Origin: a virus
Virus record (IMG/VR): IMGVR_UViG_3300037755_001058
Span: 27,854-91,853 of that record
Length of the DNA: 64,000 nt
Direction: 5' to 3' (one strand)
Below the pieces are notes generated by a model. That model made no database searches. It saw only the letters and a program-made list of their open reading frames with translations, and was not told the origin of the DNA. Positions 12,002-55,873 of the stretch are shown here, one piece after another. The position numbers and the translations under genes were made by a program. Within the stretch, counting starts at the first letter, position 1. The number at the start of each line of letters is the position of its first letter.

Positions 12002-14389
12002 ATGCTCGACGCCTCCTACAGGATCTGTTGGTCTATCGACTCTTGGGTATCAACCCTTCGAGAGGCTCAGGATTCGTGGATAGTTGGGTATGACTTCGAA
12101 ACCTGTCCTGACAGGTTCCATGCCGACTACCACCCGAAGAAGGGTCGCGATGGCAAGCCGAGTAAGTGCATCCCCAGCGCTCTTCGTCCTGAGGATGGAG
12201 CAAGAATCGCGGGCATAGCCATTTCATGGCTCGACACCAATGACCGAATCAGGTCCGCGTACGCCCCCATCAGGCACGATCCACGGTTCGCGGGTGGTGA
12301 TCAGCTTGACCCATTGCAGGTCTGTAAGGCATTCAGCGACTTCATCGCCGACAGGCCTGCTGATAGGTATCTGGTTGTTCACAATCTCATGATGGAGCTT
12401 AGTTGTCAGCTGGCCGAGAATATCGTGTGGCCGAAGGAGGGGCAACTTCACGACATTCAGATCGCGGCCAGGGTTCTCAACCGGGGAGTAGGATTCCAGG
12501 AGCTGATCGGCCTCAAGCCACTCCAGGCCGAGGTGTTGAAGCGAGACATGGGGTCCAAGAACGACTTGGATCGTTGGCTGAAGGCCCATAGGTTCAAGCC
12601 TGGTCGTGACATCTGGAGAGCCCCTGCACCATTGGCCGGTTGGTACGCTCAGGATGATGCCCGTGACACTCTCGAGATCTGTCTGAAGTGGTGGAAGCTG
12701 ATTCATCAGCCACCTACCAGATGGTGGTGGCACAGGGCACCAGATAGGTCTCAGCGCCTGGACCTGTACGAACTCGAGATTCGTGCGGCTATTGAAGCCA
12801 CAATCTCATGCATGCGTGGGACACGGTACGATGCACCCTTCTGCCGGCGTCAAGGACGCGCGGCCGAGGTACTGCAGTCCATCGCTCGCGACTGGATCCG
12901 AGGATACCTGGGAATGCCGGCCCTCAATCCAGGAAGCCAAACCCAGCTCAGAGGTGTTCTGTTCGGAACTCGGTTCAACTTCGAAGTCTCGCTCGAGCAC
13001 ACGACGGAGAGCTTCAAGAAGCTACCAGAGCGTGAACAGGCATCGACAATAGCTGGGCATGGCAAGGCACCTCTGGTGAGTTACGCCTCTCTCGATGTTG
13101 ATGCCCTCAAGTACTACGAGTCCAAGTACATAGAACACGCGGACCTGCTGTTCATGCTGGCTGTGTACCGTAAGTGCTCCACAGCCATATCGTGGTTCGA
13201 TGACAGGGTCCTGCAGTTCGGCGTTCGTGGATCTCCAGATCCATGGTGGAATTCAGACGCTGGTTCGTACCTGAACTTGATGTTCCATCGTCTGAGGACG
13301 GTAGGGACCGGCCCGGGCCGGATGAGCAGTTCAGACTACAACGCTCAGCAGGTGCCGAAGCGACTGAAGATGCTGCTGAACGCAGCTCGGCTATTCCGTA
13401 TCCTGGAGGAGGTCATGCACCCGTCCAGGCTAAACGGAATCATGTCGATTCTGATTAGAGTACCGTGTAAGGAGGGCGACGAGGCGAAGGTCCTTGGACT
13501 GCAGCCTGGTGACGAGGTGGTGGACTTCTCCATCAGGAGAATGTTTATCTCCAGGCCGGAGTTCAACCTCAGGACGTTCGACCTCTCACAGGTCGAGATG
13601 CGTGGGTTTGCCCATTACACGGGTAATCGCCTACTGTGTAACGGGTACGGGCCACCGTTGGCTAACGTCGCGGCCTTAGCAGAGTTAGACGCCGTCCAAG
13701 CTCTCATGGAGGAACGTGAGCCTGATTGGTCGAATGTCGATGTTGAACGCCATGTTAGGATGGAGGAGAACGAGTTCGACATTCATGGATTCGTCAGTGA
13801 CGAGCTGAGCATCTCACGCAAGGGTGGAAAGGGGATCAACTTTGGGCTCGTCTACGGAATGGGTGAAAAGAAGCTGGCTCGAGGTCTAGGGTGGTCACCT
13901 GGCGACGGAAAGCTGTACCTAGCCAGATACCATGCCAAGTTTCCAGAGATCAGGCAGATGCAGGGAAAGATCGTCATCGCCCTGAGGAGCAGGGGATACG
14001 TCTTCGATCCATTCGGCAGACGTTACTACCTACCGGTGGCCAGAGCGTACGTAGGCTTGAACCGCCTGATCCAAGGGTGGGCTGCCACTGCGTTCAAGGT
14101 GGGATTCGTCAGGACCTCCGAGGTGTTCAGGTCACCAGGGTTCGGTGGTGGGTCTATCGATTCTGTCACTGGACTCCGTCGTAGTGATGGAGCCAGAATC
14201 CTCACCTGTATCCATGACGAGCAGATGGGTGAGATCCACAGGTCGCTCGATAATGTCAGGACTGACTGGGTGGTCAGGTCGTGCATGACGAACCTGTTCG
14301 GATTGAACGTACCGCTAGCATCGTCATCTGAACGTTCCGACGGCCCGTGGGACAATGCTACCGGTGTCTCGGCTAAACTACCAGTATGA
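12002..14389 (+). CDS. polA: Family A DNA polymerase with 3'-5' exonuclease
   Basis: ExoI YDFET, ExoII HNLMMEL, ExoIII YAQDD, motif A DLSQVEMR, motif B RKGGKGINFGLVYG, motif C IHDE. Confidence 0.93.
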   Translation: MLDASYRICWSIDSWVSTLREAQDSWIVGYDFETCPDRFHADYHPKKGRDGKPSKCIPSALRPEDGARIAGIAISWLDTNDRIRSAYAPIRHDPRFAGGDQLDPLQVCKAFSDFIADRPADRYLVVHNLMMELSCQLAENIVWPKEGQLHDIQIAARVLNRGVGFQELIGLKPLQAEVLKRDMGSKNDLDRWLKAHRFKPGRDIWRAPAPLAGWYAQDDARDTLEICLKWWKLIHQPPTRWWWHRAPDRSQRLDLYELEIRAAIEATISCMRGTRYDAPFCRRQGRAAEVLQSIARDWIRGYLGMPALNPGSQTQLRGVLFGTRFNFEVSLEHTTESFKKLPEREQASTIAGHGKAPLVSYASLDVDALKYYESKYIEHADLLFMLAVYRKCSTAISWFDDRVLQFGVRGSPDPWWNSDAGSYLNLMFHRLRTVGTGPGRMSSSDYNAQQVPKRLKMLLNAARLFRILEEVMHPSRLNGIMSILIRVPCKEGDEAKVLGLQPGDEVVDFSIRRMFISRPEFNLRTFDLSQVEMRGFAHYTGNRLLCNGYGPPLANVAALAELDAVQALMEEREPDWSNVDVERHVRMEENEFDIHGFVSDELSISRKGGKGINFGLVYGMGEKKLARGLGWSPGDGKLYLARYHAKFPEIRQMQGKIVIALRSRGYVFDPFGRRYYLPVARAYVGLNRLIQGWAATAFKVGFVRTSEVFRSPGFGGGSIDSVTGLRRSDGARILTCIHDEQMGEIHRSLDNVRTDWVVRSCMTNLFGLNVPLASSSERSDGPWDNATGVSAKLPV

Positions 14390-18820: not shown

Positions 18821-18856
18821 TATCCCCAGCAGGGGGCCATCCACCACACCAACACT

Positions 18857-18899
18857 CACTTCCGCTTACCCCTAGGATGGTCCTAGGGTAGCGGAAGTG
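18857..18899. terminator. Long stem-loop (terminator or regulatory hairpin)
   Basis: CACTTCCGCT-TACCCCTAGGA-tgg-TCCTAGGGT-AGCGGAAGTG. Confidence 0.65.
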
Positions 18900-18958
18900 G
18901 CTATCGAAGAGGGACACATGACCAACTATGCGGAAGACGTCCGAGCCTGGATGCCCCT

Positions 18959-21613
18959 GTGACGGCGGGCCGCGCGTTCCATACCGATAGTCGCACGTGG
19001 AGCAACTTCCAGCCGAACGAACTGGTCAAGCTCTGCGGCGTCCCGATGGGCCGGTGGCCCGTGTACGTCGTCAAGGAGCTCCTCGACAACGCCGTGGCGG
19101 CGCTTGAGGAACACGCTCTTCGGGTGCCGATGATTCGTGTGACGGTGACCAAGGACTACGTTGAGGTCATGGACAACGGTCCTGGCATCTCAGACGTCGT
19201 TCTCGAGAAGGTCCTGGACTTCGAGCGGTTCGGTGGTAGCAACCGTCATCACAAGCTGCCAACCAGGGGGGCCCAAGGCAACGCGATCATGACCATCGTC
19301 GGGATCGCCTCCGCCTGGGCACCGGACCGAAGCATCGAGGTCTCGCGGCCCTCTGGACCCCGAGTCGCACTGGATGTGAAGCTCGACAAGGTCCTGCAAG
19401 AGGTCAAGGTCGAGACCATCACTGTAGGCGAGCCAGGGCCGTCTGCCATCAGGGTGCCGTGGCCGGTCGAGGTCCCGTGGAAGCGGGGTGGCTCTTCGTT
19501 CGAGGATGTTGTCTCCACGATCAGAGACTTCTCCTGGATGAACCCCCACGTACAGTTCATGATGACGGACTCCACTGGGAAGTCCACGGCGACCAGGTCG
19601 GTCCTGATGGAGCCCGGGGCCACAGCCGCAATGCGCGGATCGTTCTCATGTGGTGCCGCATCCTGGTTCACCAGAGACGAGTTCTACGAGAGGATGGCTG
19701 CAGACGTTCGTGCCAGACCCGACATCATGATGTCGGACTGGTGCAAGGAGTTTGCCTTCTCGAAGGTGGGCCCGGCCGTGCTGTCCCTCTCCGGAGAGCC
19801 CGATGGGACGCTGTCCGCCAAGGTAACGGTGGACAGCGGGCACAAGGTGTCGTCATTCCTTCAGGGCCTCGTCCTCGGATGCAGCAACCTGAAGCTGGCG
19901 GAGAATCCACAGTTCGTACCGCTGGGCAAGGATCGGATGGCAGGGTTTCTGACCTCGGAGCGTGGGTCAGATCGTGACTGTGATGCCCAGTACCATTCGC
20001 TCACCGGGTCATTCGGCGACGGCGATACCAAGGTCCCATTCCTGGTGGAGGTCTGCCTTCAGCAGATGCCTGACAGGGTCAGGTACTCGCCAGAGCCAAC
20101 ACTGGCGATGAACCGTACCGTGCTGTACGGCTCTCCGTCGTTCCGGCGGAAGGACGGCTTCCAGTGGCGCGAGAAGGTCCGTGGCAACTGGCATGGCCTG
20201 GATGGGGACTTGGGGGCCCTGGCCAGGGCGTACCAAATCGACCACGGGAAGACGCCGGCGGCTATCCTGGTCCATGTGACCTGTCCATCGCCGGGGTACG
20301 CCGGCTATGGCAAGCAGCAGTTCGACACCTCATGGCTGGCCGGACCACTCAGCCAGTGCTTCGAGCGCGTGACGCTCGAGGTCAGGAGACAGCGGGCTGG
20401 AGAGGCTCGACGTAAGAACGCGAACCGCCCGAAACGGGATACCATCCGTGAGGAGATGTTCCGACTCGTTCCAGGTGTACTGGACGAGGTCACCGATAGC
20501 GGAAAGTACGAGCCGCTCATCAGGCAGTTCTACTACTCCTTCAGGAAGGAGTGGTACACTCAGGACGATCGAGAGCTTCACTACGGAACGTTCTGTGCGT
20601 ACGTCGACGAGTACGAGCGCAGCATCGGAAGGTTGGTCTGTCTGAGAGACCCCCGTGGAACCCTGTACGAGCCACATAGCAACAAGGTGGTCCGCCTCGG
20701 TACGAGCGATGTGCGGGACTACAAGCCGAAGAAGTGGGAGGGCCACACCATCATCTTCGTCGAGAAGGAGAACCTCGCCTCTCAGATGAGGGCGATGAAC
20801 ATCCACAAGCGGTGGGATGCCATCATCGTCGGGTCCAAGGGGTTCGCCGTCGAGGCCATCCGGGAGGTACTCCAAAAGTACCGACGGCTGCTCGGAGATC
20901 TGGTGAAGATCGTCGTCCTGCACGACGCCGACCCGGCAGGGTACATGATCGGATACGATCTGGCCACCAACCTCCCGAGGTTCGGTGATACGGTCGACGT
21001 CCAGGTCATCGACGTCGGTCTCACGATCAGAGATGCTGTCACCATGGGGCTTCAGGACGAACCATTCGACCTGTCCAAGCAGGTCTGGTCGATGATCACG
21101 AAGACCATGATGACCAAGACCCTCAAGGACCCTGACGGAACCACTCGGCCCCTGCTAGAACCGGAGGCGCGTGACTCCTTCGTTCCGAGCATCTGGCAGG
21201 GCGCCGAGTATCCATCCTGGGCTGACAAGCCTCGCGGTCGACGAGTGGAGCTCAACGCGATGCCTCCACGAGAATTCGAGGCTTGGGTCGAAAGGAATCT
21301 GGAGATACATGGCTGCAGGAAGGTCAGGCCACCGGATGAGGTCGTGAGCGAGCAGATGGTGAACGCTCGAACGAACGCCATCACGAACCAGACCGGCGAA
21401 CTGTTCATGCGCCTGATGGGTCAGGAAGTGGTTGATGAGGTGCTGCGCGAGATCGGCGTGCCATCGTACGATCTGGACTCTGTTCTGGAGAGCCGGCCTG
21501 AACAGCACTGGCACTACCTGGTCACCAGAGCTGCCCAGTCCGGACAGGACATCGGCCAGGCAGTGGAACGGGTGATGAAGCGGCGGTTCCCCCAAATGTT
21601 CGGAGGTGGGTGA
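18959..21613 (+). CDS. Fused type IIB DNA topoisomerase (Topo VI B+A in one chain; Topo VIII-like)
   Basis: GHKL boxes KELLDNA, DNGPGIS, RGAQGNA; Spo11/Top6A-type RQFYY (catalytic Tyr), FVEKE, SKGF, HDADPAG, RRVELNAM. Confidence 0.85.
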   Translation: MTAGRAFHTDSRTWSNFQPNELVKLCGVPMGRWPVYVVKELLDNAVAALEEHALRVPMIRVTVTKDYVEVMDNGPGISDVVLEKVLDFERFGGSNRHHKLPTRGAQGNAIMTIVGIASAWAPDRSIEVSRPSGPRVALDVKLDKVLQEVKVETITVGEPGPSAIRVPWPVEVPWKRGGSSFEDVVSTIRDFSWMNPHVQFMMTDSTGKSTATRSVLMEPGATAAMRGSFSCGAASWFTRDEFYERMAADVRARPDIMMSDWCKEFAFSKVGPAVLSLSGEPDGTLSAKVTVDSGHKVSSFLQGLVLGCSNLKLAENPQFVPLGKDRMAGFLTSERGSDRDCDAQYHSLTGSFGDGDTKVPFLVEVCLQQMPDRVRYSPEPTLAMNRTVLYGSPSFRRKDGFQWREKVRGNWHGLDGDLGALARAYQIDHGKTPAAILVHVTCPSPGYAGYGKQQFDTSWLAGPLSQCFERVTLEVRRQRAGEARRKNANRPKRDTIREEMFRLVPGVLDEVTDSGKYEPLIRQFYYSFRKEWYTQDDRELHYGTFCAYVDEYERSIGRLVCLRDPRGTLYEPHSNKVVRLGTSDVRDYKPKKWEGHTIIFVEKENLASQMRAMNIHKRWDAIIVGSKGFAVEAIREVLQKYRRLLGDLVKIVVLHDADPAGYMIGYDLATNLPRFGDTVDVQVIDVGLTIRDAVTMGLQDEPFDLSKQVWSMITKTMMTKTLKDPDGTTRPLLEPEARDSFVPSIWQGAEYPSWADKPRGRRVELNAMPPREFEAWVERNLEIHGCRKVRPPDEVVSEQMVNARTNAITNQTGELFMRLMGQEVVDEVLREIGVPSYDLDSVLESRPEQHWHYLVTRAAQSGQDIGQAVERVMKRRFPQMFGGG

Positions 21614-21984
21614 TGGAACCCTGCGACGGTTGCGGTGCCACCGGCACCTACGACTCTGAGCTCCCAGGATACCGCATCAAGGTCTGCAACTGTGAGACCG
21701 TCAGGAGCGTGGTCCAACACCCGCAGCGTCCCATGCCCCCGAAGAGGTGGGCCAACCGTCGGGGCAAGCTCAACGGGCTCGTGGCGCTGCGCCGCGTCCT
21801 CGACAGCTCCTGGCTCCGCAGGTATGCCAGGGAGGCCCTCACGGACGAGGAGCTGCGTCTGGAGATCGAGCGTCGAACCATGGTCGAGGCCAGGGCAGAG
21901 TCTGTGCGGAAGGTCGATCGACGGAAGGCAATGGCCAGTTTGGTAAGGGCAGTCGGTGAGTTCGTCAGGGGAGGTCACGAATGA
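21610..21984 (+). CDS. Hypothetical protein with an N-terminal CxxC...CxC
   Basis: PCDGCGATG...VCNC; overlapping start and stop with neighbours. Confidence 0.6.
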   Translation: MMEPCDGCGATGTYDSELPGYRIKVCNCETVRSVVQHPQRPMPPKRWANRRGKLNGLVALRRVLDSSWLRRYAREALTDEELRLEIERRTMVEARAESVRKVDRRKAMASLVRAVGEFVRGGHE

Positions 21985-22754: not shown

Positions 22755-23154
22755 CCACTGCTGGGATCTTCCCTGGGCGGAAGAGGCCAAGTTCGGTGAG
22801 CCACCAATGGGCGAATTCAACTGGGCGTTGGACCAGATAGGTCCAGAACTCAAGCCTGGAGATTCGCAGATCCTGGGCATTTGCGAAGGACACGGATCTA
22901 CCGTCTACCTCAAGAGGAAGGACGACGGCACGCTGTGGTTCACCCATGGGCGCGTGTTCGTTCCCAATCTGGGAAGTGTCTGCCCCAGGCCAAGGCTGGT
23001 GCACAGACCCAAGCGGTGGTTCGACGGTCTCGCACTCTTGCGTGGCCTCTGGTGTCAGATGAGACGCCACTTCATCGTCATCGAGACGTTCGACATCGAC
23101 CAGGAGTGCTGGCGGTGCGAGGACTGCGGCATTCATTGGTGGGACCGGAAATGA
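22747..23154 (+). CDS. Hypothetical protein with a C-terminal CxxCxxC
   Basis: AAGGAGG SD; CWRCEDCG. Confidence 0.6.
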   Translation: MGDHCWDLPWAEEAKFGEPPMGEFNWALDQIGPELKPGDSQILGICEGHGSTVYLKRKDDGTLWFTHGRVFVPNLGSVCPRPRLVHRPKRWFDGLALLRGLWCQMRRHFIVIETFDIDQECWRCEDCGIHWWDRK

Positions 23155-24800
23155 GTACAGAGCCTGACTGGCAGTCCTACATTCCGGAAGTCAGCCTCCG
23201 GCCACAACAGTTCGACGCCCTGTCTCAGATCTGGGATGTCCTGTACGTTCAGGACAGAAGGGTTTGCATCCTCGAGGCACCGACCGGTGTTGGCAAGAGC
23301 CTGATCCAGCTTGCACTCTGCAGGCACAACGCCGCGCACGGCAAGAGATCGTACATCGTGACACCTCAGAGGGTTCTCCAAGATCAGATGCGGTCCTGGG
23401 ATGAGGTGGCCGTCATGAAGGGCAAGTCGTCGTATGACTGTAGACTTGTGGCATCATGTAGCGCCGCCACCGCCCCGTGTACCCTAGACTCGGATGTTCG
23501 CAACCAGAATGCTGGCGATTGTTCCGTGGGACGGTGTCCGTACTTCACGGCACTGGACACGGCGCAGAACTCCTCGGTAGTGGTTCACAACTACGCCAGC
23601 CTTCTGTCTCAGGCACACATCGGCCGTCATTTCACCACGCGCGGTCTGCTGTGCTTGGACGAGGGTCATACAGCTGTGGACTGGATTCGCAACTACATGA
23701 CGGTTGAGATGACGCCTGGTGACGTGCGAGAGCTGACGTCGCTATCACCACCAGAGAAGATCGAGCTGTTCATGCCGTGGCTTCGCTGGATCCTCTCGAA
23801 CGTGGACGAGGTACCGAAGGGTCTCAGTGACCAGCTGAAGGTTACACTCATGCGTCTGTTGGCTTGGCGTAAGCCGTTCGGTTTGTTGACCAAGCTGCAG
23901 CTCGAGGCGATGTTCGAAGAAGACCCCAAGTTCGCCTCGTACGAGGCCGACGCCAAGAACCGGTTGTTGGACTCCGGTGACGTACCGTTTGCCACGGTAT
24001 GGAACGAACCGACCAAGTGGCGTGATGAGGGATGGTGGACTACGATACCACTTCGGGTGGCCCCCATGGCTGGGGCGCTGACGGAGTTGGGTGACAAGGT
24101 GCTCGTAGTGACGGCCACAGTACTCAATCGGCCGCTGCTGGCGGCTGAATTGGGACTCAACGCCGAAGAAGCCGGCCTTGTGATGATCGATTCCGCCTTC
24201 GAACCTGGCAACCGCCCAATCGTTCGAAGGTACAGCGGGAAGATGAGCCAGCGACACCAGAGGTCGACGTTTCCCAAGCTCATCGACGAGCTCTGTCGGA
24301 TCGCTGCCCGGCACCACGACGAGCCTGGGATGGTACATACCGTCAGCCATCGGCTTTCAGCAGAGATCTGCTACGAGCTGAGAAACCGTCTGGGAGGACG
24401 AACGGTGGAACAGCTCCCCACCGGTGGCGCTCGAGAGCTGATCATCCATAGGTTCCTGTCTGGAGGCCTCGGACCGAATGCCATCCTGGTGGGTCCATCG
24501 CTCATCGAAGGGGTAGACGGAGAGGGAGACTCCTGCCGGTGGCAGGCCATGTGCAAGGTGCCGTGGCCATTCATGGGTGACCCAGTGGTGAAGTACATCA
24601 GGTCCAGGCCGGGGCAAACGGCGAAGTCTTGGGCCGAGGCATGGTACACCTGGAAGGCAGCTCAGGCAACGGTCCAGGGCATCGGTAGGGTCTGCCGGAC
24701 CCCCCACGACTTCGGCACCACGTATCTGCTGGATTCAGGGTTCGACACGATCCTGAAGTCCAAGTACGTTCCAGACTACGTCAAGGCAGCCATCACCTGA
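23151..24800 (+). CDS. DinG/XPD-family SF2 helicase with Fe-S cysteines
   Basis: Q motif LRPQQ, EAPTGVGKS, Cys cluster, DEGH, TAT, EGVD..GD.CR...KVPWP, QGIGRVCR..HDFG..YLLD. Confidence 0.88.
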   Translation: MSTEPDWQSYIPEVSLRPQQFDALSQIWDVLYVQDRRVCILEAPTGVGKSLIQLALCRHNAAHGKRSYIVTPQRVLQDQMRSWDEVAVMKGKSSYDCRLVASCSAATAPCTLDSDVRNQNAGDCSVGRCPYFTALDTAQNSSVVVHNYASLLSQAHIGRHFTTRGLLCLDEGHTAVDWIRNYMTVEMTPGDVRELTSLSPPEKIELFMPWLRWILSNVDEVPKGLSDQLKVTLMRLLAWRKPFGLLTKLQLEAMFEEDPKFASYEADAKNRLLDSGDVPFATVWNEPTKWRDEGWWTTIPLRVAPMAGALTELGDKVLVVTATVLNRPLLAAELGLNAEEAGLVMIDSAFEPGNRPIVRRYSGKMSQRHQRSTFPKLIDELCRIAARHHDEPGMVHTVSHRLSAEICYELRNRLGGRTVEQLPTGGARELIIHRFLSGGLGPNAILVGPSLIEGVDGEGDSCRWQAMCKVPWPFMGDPVVKYIRSRPGQTAKSWAEAWYTWKAAQATVQGIGRVCRTPHDFGTTYLLDSGFDTILKSKYVPDYVKAAIT

Positions 24801-36545: not shown

Positions 36546-36618
36546 GTGGCCGTAACTCAGACGGACAGAGTGCCGACCTCCTAAGTCGGAAACGTAGGTT
36601 CAAGTCCTGCCGGCCACA
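36546..36618 (+). tRNA. tRNA-Arg (anticodon CCT), CCA not encoded
   Basis: Acceptor GTGGCCG/CGGCCAC, D arm CTC..GAG, anticodon arm CCGAC-ctCCTaa-GTCGG, T arm GTAGG-TTCAAGT-CCTGC. Confidence 0.93.
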
Positions 36619-53128: not shown

Positions 53129-55873
53129 TCACCCCTCGGAGACGAGCTGCGTCGGCGACAGCACGATGGTCAGGTTCTCGAGCGCGGGTCGCGGCCGGAA
53201 CTGGATCGTTGCCGTCACGTTGCCCTCGAGCAGCTCCTCAGGCGGGTTCTGGTCCGGAGGGACGAGAACCGTAACCTGCTGCTCGAAGCCCGGACCGGCA
53301 TGGTCACTGAACCAGCCGTCTCGGTAGTAGACCTTGAGCTTCTCCCGGAGGGAGGCTTGGATGTCGCCCAGTCGCCTGGCCGAGATGCTCTTGAAGATCC
53401 ACGGCCTGGTGGTCACGAACAGGTCTCTGGCGACGTGGTAGAACACGTCGCGTTCCGTGATCGTGTACCGCTTGCCCTTGGGGGTCCGCCCGAGGCTGTA
53501 CCGCCTATTCCCCCACAGGTAGACCGCCGCACCCTCCCAGAGCAGCATGACGATGCCATTGTCGTTCAGCAGCTTCTTGGGAGGGGTCCAGCGACCGATA
53601 TCGTCGCTGAGGCCGAGCACGCGCGGGCTCAAGCGGCCCTGTTCGTTGTTGTTGGCCGCGGCGATGTGGAACCCGCGCTCTCCATCGACCCCCTCATTCG
53701 CCAGGCGCGACTTGATGCCCAGGAACATCCCGGCCACGGACCGGGTGACGGCCTTGGTTCGGGCCACGTTGAGGAACTTGGCCCTCGACGGGAACAGATG
53801 GTCGACATAGTCCGACTCGACCTCAGACCCGGCCATGTCGGCAACCGCTGCCTGTCCAGGAAGGGCCTGGGCCTCGAGGCCGGCGGCGAACTCGGCGACG
53901 TATACCCACCCGTTCTTGCGGACGAACGGTTCGATCGCGGCCTTCACGGAGGTGGCCGTGATTCCAGGGGTGATGATCCGAACCAGGCCAAGGTTCGTGC
54001 AGAGCCAACGCTGGAAGATAGCATCTTCCAGGTCCGATGCGATGATGTACCTGGCAGCCGCGGGGGCAACCCCATCGTACCCACCCCACATCGGCCATCG
54101 ACCCTCGACCCGGAACGGAACGGCATCGGTACCGTACACCACCCCAGAGGTGGCGATGCCGAGTCCGGCGTGGCCAGTACCGCTCCCGAGGGTGAGGCTG
54201 GACTTCGATCCGTACGACCCCTGGAGACCGATGGTCATGGTACCGTCGGTGTTGGCCGTGAACGTGAACATGTCCGTGGTGTCGAGGGTGGTCAACTCGG
54301 CGGCGATGGCCGTCGCCCCGGGACCAGAACCGGCCGAAACGAGCGTGATGGCGGCCCCTCCATCCGGGGAGAGAATGACGGTCTCACCCACTCCGAGAGA
54401 GACTGCGTCCAGATCCACAGTGTCTACCGTGGCGGACACACCGACAGCAGACCCATAGCTGCTGAGGAGCAGGTCGGATCTGACGGAGATGGTGTTGTAG
54501 GTGCTGGCCGCCACTCGGAGGCGCTGGTTGGTGTCTCCATCATCGGACCGGGCCACGGGGTAGAGGTACGCCTCGCGGTTGGACAGGTCCAGGGGCAGAG
54601 GATCGATGCGGATGCGCGCCGTATCACTGAGAACGGCAGCGTCGTCCCCAGCGATGATGTTGAACGACGCCAGTTGCGGATGTACCGGCACGAACGGAGT
54701 GGCCACGGTGCCAGCACCTAGATCGAGCACGGTTCCATCGGCGAAGGTGACGGACACGGTGAACGTGGTCGCGGCCGTGAACGTGATGTTGTAGACGTGA
54801 GGCTCGATCTGGGACGCATCCACCGGGGCGACGTCGACGATGTACGGATCGCCGGTGTTGGTGGCACCGAGGCTCTGCCTCCACCACTGCATGGTGATGG
54901 TGGCCCCATCCACTGATGTTGGCACCTCGCAGAGGTTCGCGGGAAGCTTGGCCTCGACCGTGGCTCCAGCGTAGGTGGTCTCGATCTCGATCTGGTACCG
55001 AGTCTGCTCGCCGTCGGGAATGACCCGCAACCAGGGGCGGTCATCGTCATCGCTGAGGCCGAGATCACCGTACGACGTGACCGACTCCCACTCGGTGTCG
55101 GCCTTGAACTTCCGGACCCCCTCGACGCTGAACAGGGTGGCGGTGACGCTGTCCTGCCCGATCACGACTGCCAGCTCCTGGCCACCCGAGAGCAGAAGGT
55201 TCCAGGACCCGTCGATGACACCCATACCATCGGCGTCCTGGACGGCCTGGGAGAACTCCCCCTTGATGGTGGCGACTCCGGTATCGTCGTTCGACACGAC
55301 CTCGTACGGACCCCCGGAGTCGCCTTCGAAGGAAATCTGCGCCCCGACGAGCTCGTCGGTGTAGAACGTCACGCCGGCCAGCTCCAGCGACGTTGACAGG
55401 TCCACGGTGCTCGCGGTGAGATCGGCGGCGATGTCGTCGAGAAGGCCGAGCAGCACCCTACGCCGACCACCCCACTTTCCGCCGTTGTTCGCCAGAGCCG
55501 TCGCCAACGGGGCCCTGTCCGTGGCAACGAGTCCAGGCTGGCTCTTGCTGAACGAGCGATCCGGGTTCCGATCCCACAAGGGGACGGTGGACTGCCGATC
55601 GTTCCCATCGGTGACCCTCCCGATGAGGACCGGAGGGGAATCCTCTGAGTAGATGTCGTCGAGGGACAGACTTCCCTCGAAGACATCGTCTGGCTCACCG
55701 GACACCAGCCGCGCCTCGGCCTTCCCGAGGACCATCGCGGCATGCGTCACAGGACCCGAAGCGAACTGACCCATGACCGCCGACGAACCGCGAGGAGCGG
55801 TGGGCAACCCCTGGGCCCCATCGCGAACGATGACCGTGGTTCCGGGACCGTCGGGAACGAGTACGAGAGACAT
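53129..55873 (-). CDS. Contractile tail sheath protein
   Basis: PGTTV, GQFASGP, G.WG, LWGNR.., RPWIFK, PRPALENLTI. Confidence 0.88.
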   Translation of the reverse strand: MSLVLVPDGPGTTVIVRDGAQGLPTAPRGSSAVMGQFASGPVTHAAMVLGKAEARLVSGEPDDVFEGSLSLDDIYSEDSPPVLIGRVTDGNDRQSTVPLWDRNPDRSFSKSQPGLVATDRAPLATALANNGGKWGGRRRVLLGLLDDIAADLTASTVDLSTSLELAGVTFYTDELVGAQISFEGDSGGPYEVVSNDDTGVATIKGEFSQAVQDADGMGVIDGSWNLLLSGGQELAVVIGQDSVTATLFSVEGVRKFKADTEWESVTSYGDLGLSDDDDRPWLRVIPDGEQTRYQIEIETTYAGATVEAKLPANLCEVPTSVDGATITMQWWRQSLGATNTGDPYIVDVAPVDASQIEPHVYNITFTAATTFTVSVTFADGTVLDLGAGTVATPFVPVHPQLASFNIIAGDDAAVLSDTARIRIDPLPLDLSNREAYLYPVARSDDGDTNQRLRVAASTYNTISVRSDLLLSSYGSAVGVSATVDTVDLDAVSLGVGETVILSPDGGAAITLVSAGSGPGATAIAAELTTLDTTDMFTFTANTDGTMTIGLQGSYGSKSSLTLGSGTGHAGLGIATSGVVYGTDAVPFRVEGRWPMWGGYDGVAPAAARYIIASDLEDAIFQRWLCTNLGLVRIITPGITATSVKAAIEPFVRKNGWVYVAEFAAGLEAQALPGQAAVADMAGSEVESDYVDHLFPSRAKFLNVARTKAVTRSVAGMFLGIKSRLANEGVDGERGFHIAAANNNEQGRLSPRVLGLSDDIGRWTPPKKLLNDNGIVMLLWEGAAVYLWGNRRYSLGRTPKGKRYTITERDVFYHVARDLFVTTRPWIFKSISARRLGDIQASLREKLKVYYRDGWFSDHAGPGFEQQVTVLVPPDQNPPEELLEGNVTATIQFRPRPALENLTIVLSPTQLVSEG

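Follow-up and report, generated by a model that had tools for sequence, protein, structure and literature searches.

A predicted fused type IIB topoisomerase of the Topo VIII subfamily in a contractile-tailed phage lineage

In the published partition of type IIB topoisomerases, Topo VI belongs to chromosomes, Topo VIII to plasmids and Mini-A to viruses (PMC7671362). That work confines Topo VIII to plasmids, free or integrated, and gives Mini-A as the type found in viruses. Here, a Topo VIII-type gene is described from a virus record in IMG/VR. The stretch analyzed (the window) is 64,000 nucleotides long and covers bases 27854–91853 of the 91,853-bp record IMGVR_UViG_3300037755_001058, which has a CheckV completeness of 85%. 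The gene lies at 18959–21613(+) of the window, and sequence comparisons place its product of 884 amino acids (aa), full-length and fused, in the Topo VIII subfamily of type IIB enzymes. A preliminary description had proposed a Topo VIII-like fused type IIB enzyme in the replication region of a myovirus, and had placed fused Topo VIII mainly in plasmids and integrated elements and stand-alone Mini-A in viruses. This distribution is as published (PMC7671362). The gene is flanked by the genes for a helicase and for a family A DNA polymerase (PolA), and of the seven molecular features published for Topo VIII, six were found.

Topo VIII is defined by a B-A fusion, or a split within the transducer, by N, G1 and G2 boxes with a G2 box of GxxGxG or GxxGxA, and by a transducer switch lysine (PMC7671362). 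The definition further includes a truncated 5Y-CAP domain, the motif R/HxxY/F/M-Y with Arg at Tyr+3, and a Toprim Glu followed by DxDxxG (PMC7671362). The T2BI box is RVELNAM in Topo VIII, R/KxExxA/S in Topo VI and xWELDAL in Mini-A (PMC7671362). In the P. polymyxa Topo VIII, the only member for which both activities have been demonstrated, relaxation and decatenation depend on ATP (PMC4117785).

Gene, domains and subfamily assignment

The gene is an uninterrupted open reading frame (ORF) with a GTG start and a TGA stop at 21611–21613. The protein N-terminus, MTAGRAFHTDSRTWSNF..., aligns from its first residues with 19 homologues, and the GTG start is therefore supported. Pfam detects GHKL (PF02518) at aa 36–111 with 27.1 bits against a curated cut-off of 26.4, and the Top6A/Spo11 Toprim domain (PF21180) at aa 598–667 with 27.9 bits against a cut-off of 24.1. 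NCBIfam models of Top6B match aa 36–210 and those of Top6A match aa 586–664, far under their equivalog cut-offs, as expected for a distant subfamily. The 884-aa chain with a GHKL domain, a transducer region, an RQFYY motif and a Toprim domain had been noticed in the preliminary description, and the ORF and every motif quoted there are present, with this Pfam and NCBIfam support.

The protein was aligned with three reference Topo VIII sequences (P. polymyxa pPPM1a, H. jeotgali plasmid 5 and P. amygdali pMPPla107) and 44 diverse representatives at 22–26% identity. All positions given for the gene are on the plus strand. The fusion is evident from GHKL and Top6A Toprim domains in a single ORF with folds matching Top6B and Top6A. 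The GHKL/Bergerat ATPase domain (approximately aa 36–215) occupies 19064–19603. It includes the N-box KELLDNAVAA (aa 39–48; 19073–19102), in which E40 and N44 are invariant and A47 is clade-specific, a G1 box DNGPG within 19169–19189, and a G2 box RGAQGNA of the GxxGxA type at 19265–19285. The Bergerat residues E40, N44, D72-x-G74-x-G76 and G104-x-x-G107-x-A109 are invariant in the 45-sequence alignment, D72 nearly so. The H2TH and transducer region (approximately aa 216–494) spans 19604–20440. Its GYGKQQF motif at 20303–20323 aligns to the Topo VI-B switch-lysine motif SAGKES and contains the family-invariant Lys452, which is kept in the 45 diverse sequences and the three references. In Top6B this switch lysine is numbered K427.

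The C-terminal half begins with the 5Y-CAP (winged-helix) domain at 20441–20743. Its RQFYYSFRK motif (aa 522–530; 20522–20548) includes catalytic Tyr526 (20534–20536) and conserved Arg522 and Arg529, the latter at Tyr+3; R522, Y526 and R529 are invariant in the phage clade described below and in the references. The Toprim domain at 20744–21268 carries FVEKEN (aa 600–605; 20756–20773) with E602, and the DxDxxG motif DADPAG (aa 656–661; 20924–20941), and E602, D656, D658 and G661 are invariant. The T2BI box is an exact RVELNAM (aa 762–768; 21242–21262), with R762, E764 and N766 invariant in the clade and the references. A C-terminal helical extension at 21269–21610 is common to the reference Topo VIII proteins and has invariant K788, P791, L843, P847 and W851. 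Across the references and the 44 representatives, E40, D43, N44, G74, G76, R103, G104, G107, A109, K452, Y526, E602, K603, D656, D658, G661, E764, K788 and W851 are invariant, and R522, R529, R762 and N766 are nearly so. For the seventh feature, the truncated 5Y-CAP domain, the comparison is of segment lengths only: approximately 75–90 residues separate the last transducer helix (aa 496–511) from the Toprim start (aa ~586–598), compared with approximately 185 in Top6A models.

Profile and structural comparisons agree with this domain order. A family profile searched against PDB sequences matches Top6B (E 3e-34) and Top6A (E 1e-11), and the alignment puts the invariant GK (K452) on the SAGKES/SESKDA switch lysine of Top6B. 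A full-length AlphaFold model has a mean predicted local distance difference test (pLDDT) score of 79. Its best PDB matches are the Topo VI-B chains 9o0g_B, 1mx0, 2q2e_B and 2zbk_B (E 1e-13 to 7e-17 over 500–568 columns), which rank above GyrB and MutL. The C-terminal half, folded separately from a 50-sequence alignment, has a pLDDT of 90.6 and a predicted template modeling (TM) score (pTM) of 0.83. It matches Top6A in the M. mazei Topo VI–DNA cleavage complex (E 1e-8 over 336 columns), M. jannaschii Top6A (1d3y) and the yeast Spo11 core complex. JetD and MksG rank much lower (E 6e-4 and 7.5e-5, TM approximately 0.3). No significant structural match to the C-terminal half was found in BFVD.

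A tree of 180 sequences was built with FastTree (LG+G) and midpoint-rooted. The phage clade is monophyletic (support 1.0) on a long stem of 0.98 substitutions per site, and is sister (0.997) to a group with the H. jeotgali reference; the P. polymyxa and P. amygdali references come next. Topo VI and Mini-A outgroups are not part of this tree, so the subfamily assignment rests on the T2BI box and the full-length alignment. Three other identities were considered and rejected. Topo VI has separate A and B subunits, a full 5Y-CAP domain and an R/KxExxA/S box, whereas this protein is a fused chain with RVELNAM. Mini-A does not fit a protein with a full GHKL domain and transducer and an RVELNAM box. 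The Wadjet-type nucleases JetD and MksG were set aside on the lack of a PADLOC match and on a structural rank under all Top6A and Spo11 chains.

The closest described relative is the Topo VIII of H. jeotgali B3 plasmid 5, a member of the GxxGxA group (PMC4117785, PMC7671362). It is the same single-chain B-A fusion and shares RVELNAM, Arg at Tyr+3, the GxxGxA G2 box, the switch Lys and the C-terminal extension; the two proteins align over 94% of their length with 25.6% identity (E 7e-50). In contrast to that plasmid or integrated plasmid gene, the window gene is on an approximately 100-kb contractile-tailed phage with no detectable PF00589 integrase. Its clade differs from the H. jeotgali group by the long stem, by Ala in place of the N-box Asn+3 Asp/Glu, and by Lys in place of the usual Pro after Arg529. 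The P. polymyxa M1 pPPM1a enzyme agrees in architecture and in catalytic residues (tblastn E 4e-29 over the C-terminal 36%), but it is plasmid-borne, has a GxxGxG G2 box and 751 aa, and is approximately 23% identical. Archaeal and plant Topo VI (Top6A2-Top6B2; 2zbk, 2q2e, 9o0g) shares the folds of both halves, the ATP site, the switch Lys, the Tyr and the Toprim ligands, and differs in its two separate subunits, full-length 5Y-CAP domain, R/KxExxA/S box and chromosomal location. Mini-A, a viral stand-alone Top6A-like protein, is likewise virus-encoded with 5Y-CAP and Toprim domains, but has approximately 300 aa, no GHKL domain or transducer, and the box xWELDAL. The role proposed for the window enzyme, as the type II topoisomerase of a large phage with possibly modified DNA, is analogous to that of the T4-type type IIA topoisomerase (gp39/gp52/gp60), and both enzymes have GHKL domains. 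If the DNA of the window phage is indeed modified, the case would resemble T4, a phage with modified DNA that brings its own type II topoisomerase. The cleavage core of the T4-type enzyme is non-homologous, and PF00521 has no match in the window phage.

Several features flank the gene. A GC-rich imperfect hairpin of approximately 18 bp lies in the upstream intergenic region at 18856–18899(+), and comparable long hairpins occur upstream of the Topo VIII gene in the relatives L005 and L006. A 14-codon upstream ORF runs from an ATG at 18918 to a TGA at 18960–18962 and has a good Shine-Dalgarno sequence (GAAGAGGGA). Its stop overlaps the Topo VIII GTG start, which has no Shine-Dalgarno sequence of its own. 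It was rejected as a conserved leader because the relatives do not keep it. Downstream, a Cys-rich ORF (CDGCG...CNCE) of 123/124 aa at 21610–21984 is translationally coupled to the Topo VIII stop (GGAGGTGGGTGATG). It has no Pfam or PHROG match. As the ORF 21613–21984 it was considered as a partner subunit, and was rejected as an obligate one, being absent downstream of the gene in L005, L006 and L011.

Carrier phage and conservation of the gene

The window encodes PolA, a dCMP deaminase, an XPD/DinG-like helicase, a large terminase subunit (TerL), an NAD-dependent ligase, an exonuclease, ThyX, a ribonucleotide reductase with an HNH insert, a tape-measure protein and a tail sheath (phrog_23). 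As judged from gene content, the element is a contractile-tailed phage, because the window holds a tail sheath, a tape measure and TerL; the earlier label of myovirus agrees with these genes and with the virus record. TerL relatives among deposited phages are all <30% identical, so the lineage has no close cultured relative.

A word-indexed search returned 38 full-length homologues of the Topo VIII protein at 50–67% identity, and one more of 737 aa, on contigs of up to 108 kb. Every catalytic residue is invariant in the 20 clade members compared (51–67% identity). The relative IMGVR_UViG_3300006928_000001 has 107,823 bp, direct terminal repeats, a CheckV completeness of 100% and a TerL 63% identical to that of the window. 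Further relatives are a near-identical JGI contig (L010) and a 35-kb contig. The relative L006 (CAZHCG010000001.1) has 100,715 bp and was binned in an uncultured "Myxococcales" metagenome-assembled genome (MAG). Its TerL is 63% and its Topo VIII 57% identical, and it is a whole phage genome of the same lineage as the window. The "Myxococcales" label comes from MAG binning only and is either a binning artefact or a weak hint of the host.

Gene context was read for four contigs, and gene order was compared in three of them (L005, L006 and L011), leaving aside near-identical L010. The order is PolA, o189, dCMP deaminase, (AAA), o249, (o370), Topo VIII, helicase, o292, o275, o732, (o654), where bracketed genes are missing from one or two of the three contexts. 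In the window, PolA at 12002–14389(+) is the upstream anchor of this conserved replication module, and the XPD/DinG-like (Rad3-type) helicase at 23151–24800(+) is the conserved downstream neighbour. Identities across the compared relatives are 57–65% for Topo VIII, 58–60% for PolA and 51–53% for the helicase. By these values, Topo VIII is as conserved as PolA and is a predicted core replication gene of the phage lineage. Mean identities within the clade are 56% for GHKL, 49% for H2TH and transducer, 64% for CAP and Toprim, and 52% for the C-terminal extension, so both halves of the protein are constrained. The measure of constraint was the identity within each domain together with the invariant residues, because at 50–67% protein identity the synonymous sites are saturated.

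Topo VIII is the only detectable topoisomerase of the phage. The record of the window (G000) and the complete 107.8-kb relative genome (G001) have exactly one PF21180 gene each. Searches of both genomes for the type IIA cleavage core (PF00521), type IA topoisomerase (PF01131) and tyrosine integrase (PF00589) gave no match, and the controls were positive.

Other features of the window were also recorded. The helicase ORF as listed runs from a TTG at 22881 to 24800 (639 aa), and its PHROG match begins at residue 102. The true start is probably at 23151, where an ATG overlaps the stop codon of the ORF before it (ATGA); the protein would then have 549 aa, as does the L005 orthologue. A tRNA-Arg (anticodon CCT) is found at 36546–36618, between TerL and the NAD-dependent ligase. 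The tail sheath homologue at 53129–55873(−) is unusually long (914 aa), and the PHROG sheath profile spans its residues 13–905 with large insertions.

Proposed role, ATP pocket and alternatives

The gene probably encodes a functional Topo VIII that serves as the phage's own type II topoisomerase in the replication of its approximately 100-kb genome (probability about 0.68). The observations behind this reading are the domain content, the catalytic residues, the conservation, the similarity to Top6B and Top6A folds, the position between PolA and the helicase, and the absence of another topoisomerase. We infer from them that the protein would dimerize, depend on ATP, pass strands and act in this role. 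ATP binding to two GHKL domains, with E40 as general base, N44 as Mg2+ ligand and the G1 and G2 loops, would close the N-gate around a T-segment. Lys452 of the transducer would sense the gamma-phosphate and relay the signal to the C-terminal half. Tyr526 of each 5Y-CAP domain would then cut both strands of the G-segment, with E602, D656 and D658 of the partner Toprim domain as the Mg2+ ligands. The T-segment would pass through the break, which would be resealed. Supercoils ahead of forks would be relaxed, and daughter or concatemeric genomes decatenated. Such a homodimeric type IIB enzyme would act in both replication and packaging of an approximately 100-kb genome with direct terminal repeats.

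The ATP pocket of the clade is altered. The preliminary description had pointed to DNAVAA in the N-box in place of the usual DNAxDA, and the difference is real and clade-wide: position 47 (N-box Asn+3) is Ala in 20/20 clade members, whereas all IMG/VR relatives and 43/43 other family representatives have Asp or Glu. At D72, the G1 Asp that corresponds to Asp76 of S. shibatae Topo VI-B, 6/20 clade members and none of the other representatives have Glu; the window protein keeps Asp. E40, N44, the glycine loops and K452 are unaltered. In S. shibatae Topo VI-B, Asp45 makes only water-mediated contacts at the pocket edge, and Asn42 and Asp76 are direct ligands of Mg2+ and adenine, respectively (PMC1616964). 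On these comparisons, the ATP site is remodelled but probably functional.

A number of points weigh against a functional replicative enzyme. The ATP pocket is changed only in the phage clade, by the invariable loss of the Asn+3 acidic residue to Ala and by the G1 Asp-to-Glu change in 6/20 members, and this is the main reason why activity cannot simply be assumed. All three characterized Topo VIII enzymes are weak, and the only characterized member of the GxxGxA group, from A. degensii, cleaved DNA but did not relax it (PMC7671362, PMC4117785). The window record is approximately 85% complete and a second topoisomerase could lie in the missing part, although the complete relative has none.

The behavior of the A. 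degensii enzyme raises the alternative that the phage protein, like Spo11, only makes double-strand breaks, for host-chromosome degradation or for the initiation of recombination-dependent replication. The protein is in the same GxxGxA group, whose only assayed member linearized plasmid DNA without relaxation, and its ATP pocket shows the changes specific to the clade (A47, and D72E in 6/20 members). We consider a cleavage-only enzyme unlikely, however, since E40, N44, the G1 and G2 glycines and K452 are invariant down to 51% identity, and the mean identities of the GHKL domain (56%) and transducer (49%) show a clear constraint, which one would not expect after a loss of ATP-gated strand passage. 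The T2BI box, which lies over the catalytic Tyr, is also intact, and the phage has no other topoisomerase. The same pocket substitutions could instead indicate a relaxase that acts without ATP, as does the Topo VIII of M. marina (PMC4117785), with the remodelled GHKL domain as a structural or regulatory clamp only. The protein does retain its general base, Mg2+ ligand and switch lysine, though, and the contacts of Topo VI-B Asp45 are only water-mediated, so its loss need not abolish hydrolysis; ATP-independent relaxation thus appears quite improbable.

Weak structural matches of the C-terminal half to JetD and MksG leave some room for a defence or counter-defence nuclease related to these or to OLD-type Toprim proteins. 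Top6A and Spo11 match far better, PADLOC gave no match at E<=1, the exact Topo VIII signature is present, and the gene is within a conserved replication module; a role in defence is very improbable. It is scarcely credible that a plasmid gene was joined to a chimeric viral contig by assembly or binning. The record is indeed a metagenomic assembly, and one relative was binned in a "Myxococcales" MAG, but at least four independent assemblies have the same gene and synteny together with a related PolA, helicase and TerL, and one of them, which has direct terminal repeats, is a complete genome.

Viral carriers and meaning for the type IIB family

Beyond the two founding papers and the reviews citing them, the literature searched gave no paper that links Topo VIII to a phage. 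A tblastn search with three Topo VIII subgroup queries (the window protein, the P. polymyxa reference and L025) found no homologue in 50,697 deposited phage genomes, and the same collection answered a TerL query used as positive control. The preliminary description had named homologues already common in characterized phages as a point against its reading; these queries found none in the deposited genomes. A single-protein scan of IMG/VR also found no homologue, but alignment-based scans did. They returned approximately 20 further contigs whose Topo VIII genes are distant (approximately 25% identity) and either fused or split, all with R[VI]ELNA[MFL], RxxxYxxR and DxDxxG.

In six of the IMG/VR contigs (L014, L016, L019, L021, L025 and L026), a gene for a terminase, major head protein or portal lies no more than 10 kb away. 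Split two-ORF forms are found on the small viral contigs L013, L019, L020, L021 and L026. In L019, L021 and L026 the split gene lies a few kb upstream of a terminase or portal gene, as do fused forms in L014, L016 and L025. Integrase, primase and ParB genes are common among the distant loci, and the integrases and ParB suggest temperate phages, phage-plasmids or satellites. The distant viral lineages are scattered in the 180-sequence tree. Viral carriage of Topo VIII is real, recurrent, rare and undescribed, and the window phage is not its sole case. The earlier view that such an enzyme is unusual in a phage thus stands in that it is undescribed and was not found by three queries in the deposited genomes; it is not unique, since at least six other small (pro)phage-like IMG/VR contigs carry distant genes.

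An exhaustive profile search of clusters at 50% identity gave 2,195 representatives at E<=1e-30, and 9,573 at the looser threshold of E<=1e-3; the whole phage clade is one such cluster. Among the best 150 matches listed, all but one (690 aa) have 812–1,026 aa, consistent with full-length B-A fusions. The published survey of Topo VIII has 82 sequences (PMC7671362). By these counts of predicted proteins, the diversity of fused Topo VIII-type proteins exceeds that of the published set more than tenfold.

The new element of this work is a known family, Topo VIII, in a class of element, the tailed phage, that is undescribed for the family, together with a clade-specific change in the ATP pocket. 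The three studied Topo VIII enzymes were weak or unstable, possibly owing to an origin in decaying elements. With purifying selection that appears to match that on PolA, the phage gene is better suited to biochemical and structural work, and the Asp-to-Ala pocket change is a natural variant open to direct testing.

Scenarios for the origin of the family rest on the published partition, which is broken by Topo VIII as a putative phage core gene and by the other (pro)phage-like carriers. As a tentative and rather doubtful extension, Topo VIII may be the dedicated replicative type II topoisomerase of non-integrating phages of approximately 100 kb, possibly acting on hypermodified DNA with a remodelled ATP site. 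Tailed viruses, and not plasmids alone, might then form a substantial reservoir of type IIB enzymes and perhaps also be their source, and Mini-A might descend from a viral Topo VIII that lost its B moiety. The window phage supplies the virus with a complete B-A enzyme that such a loss scenario presupposes.

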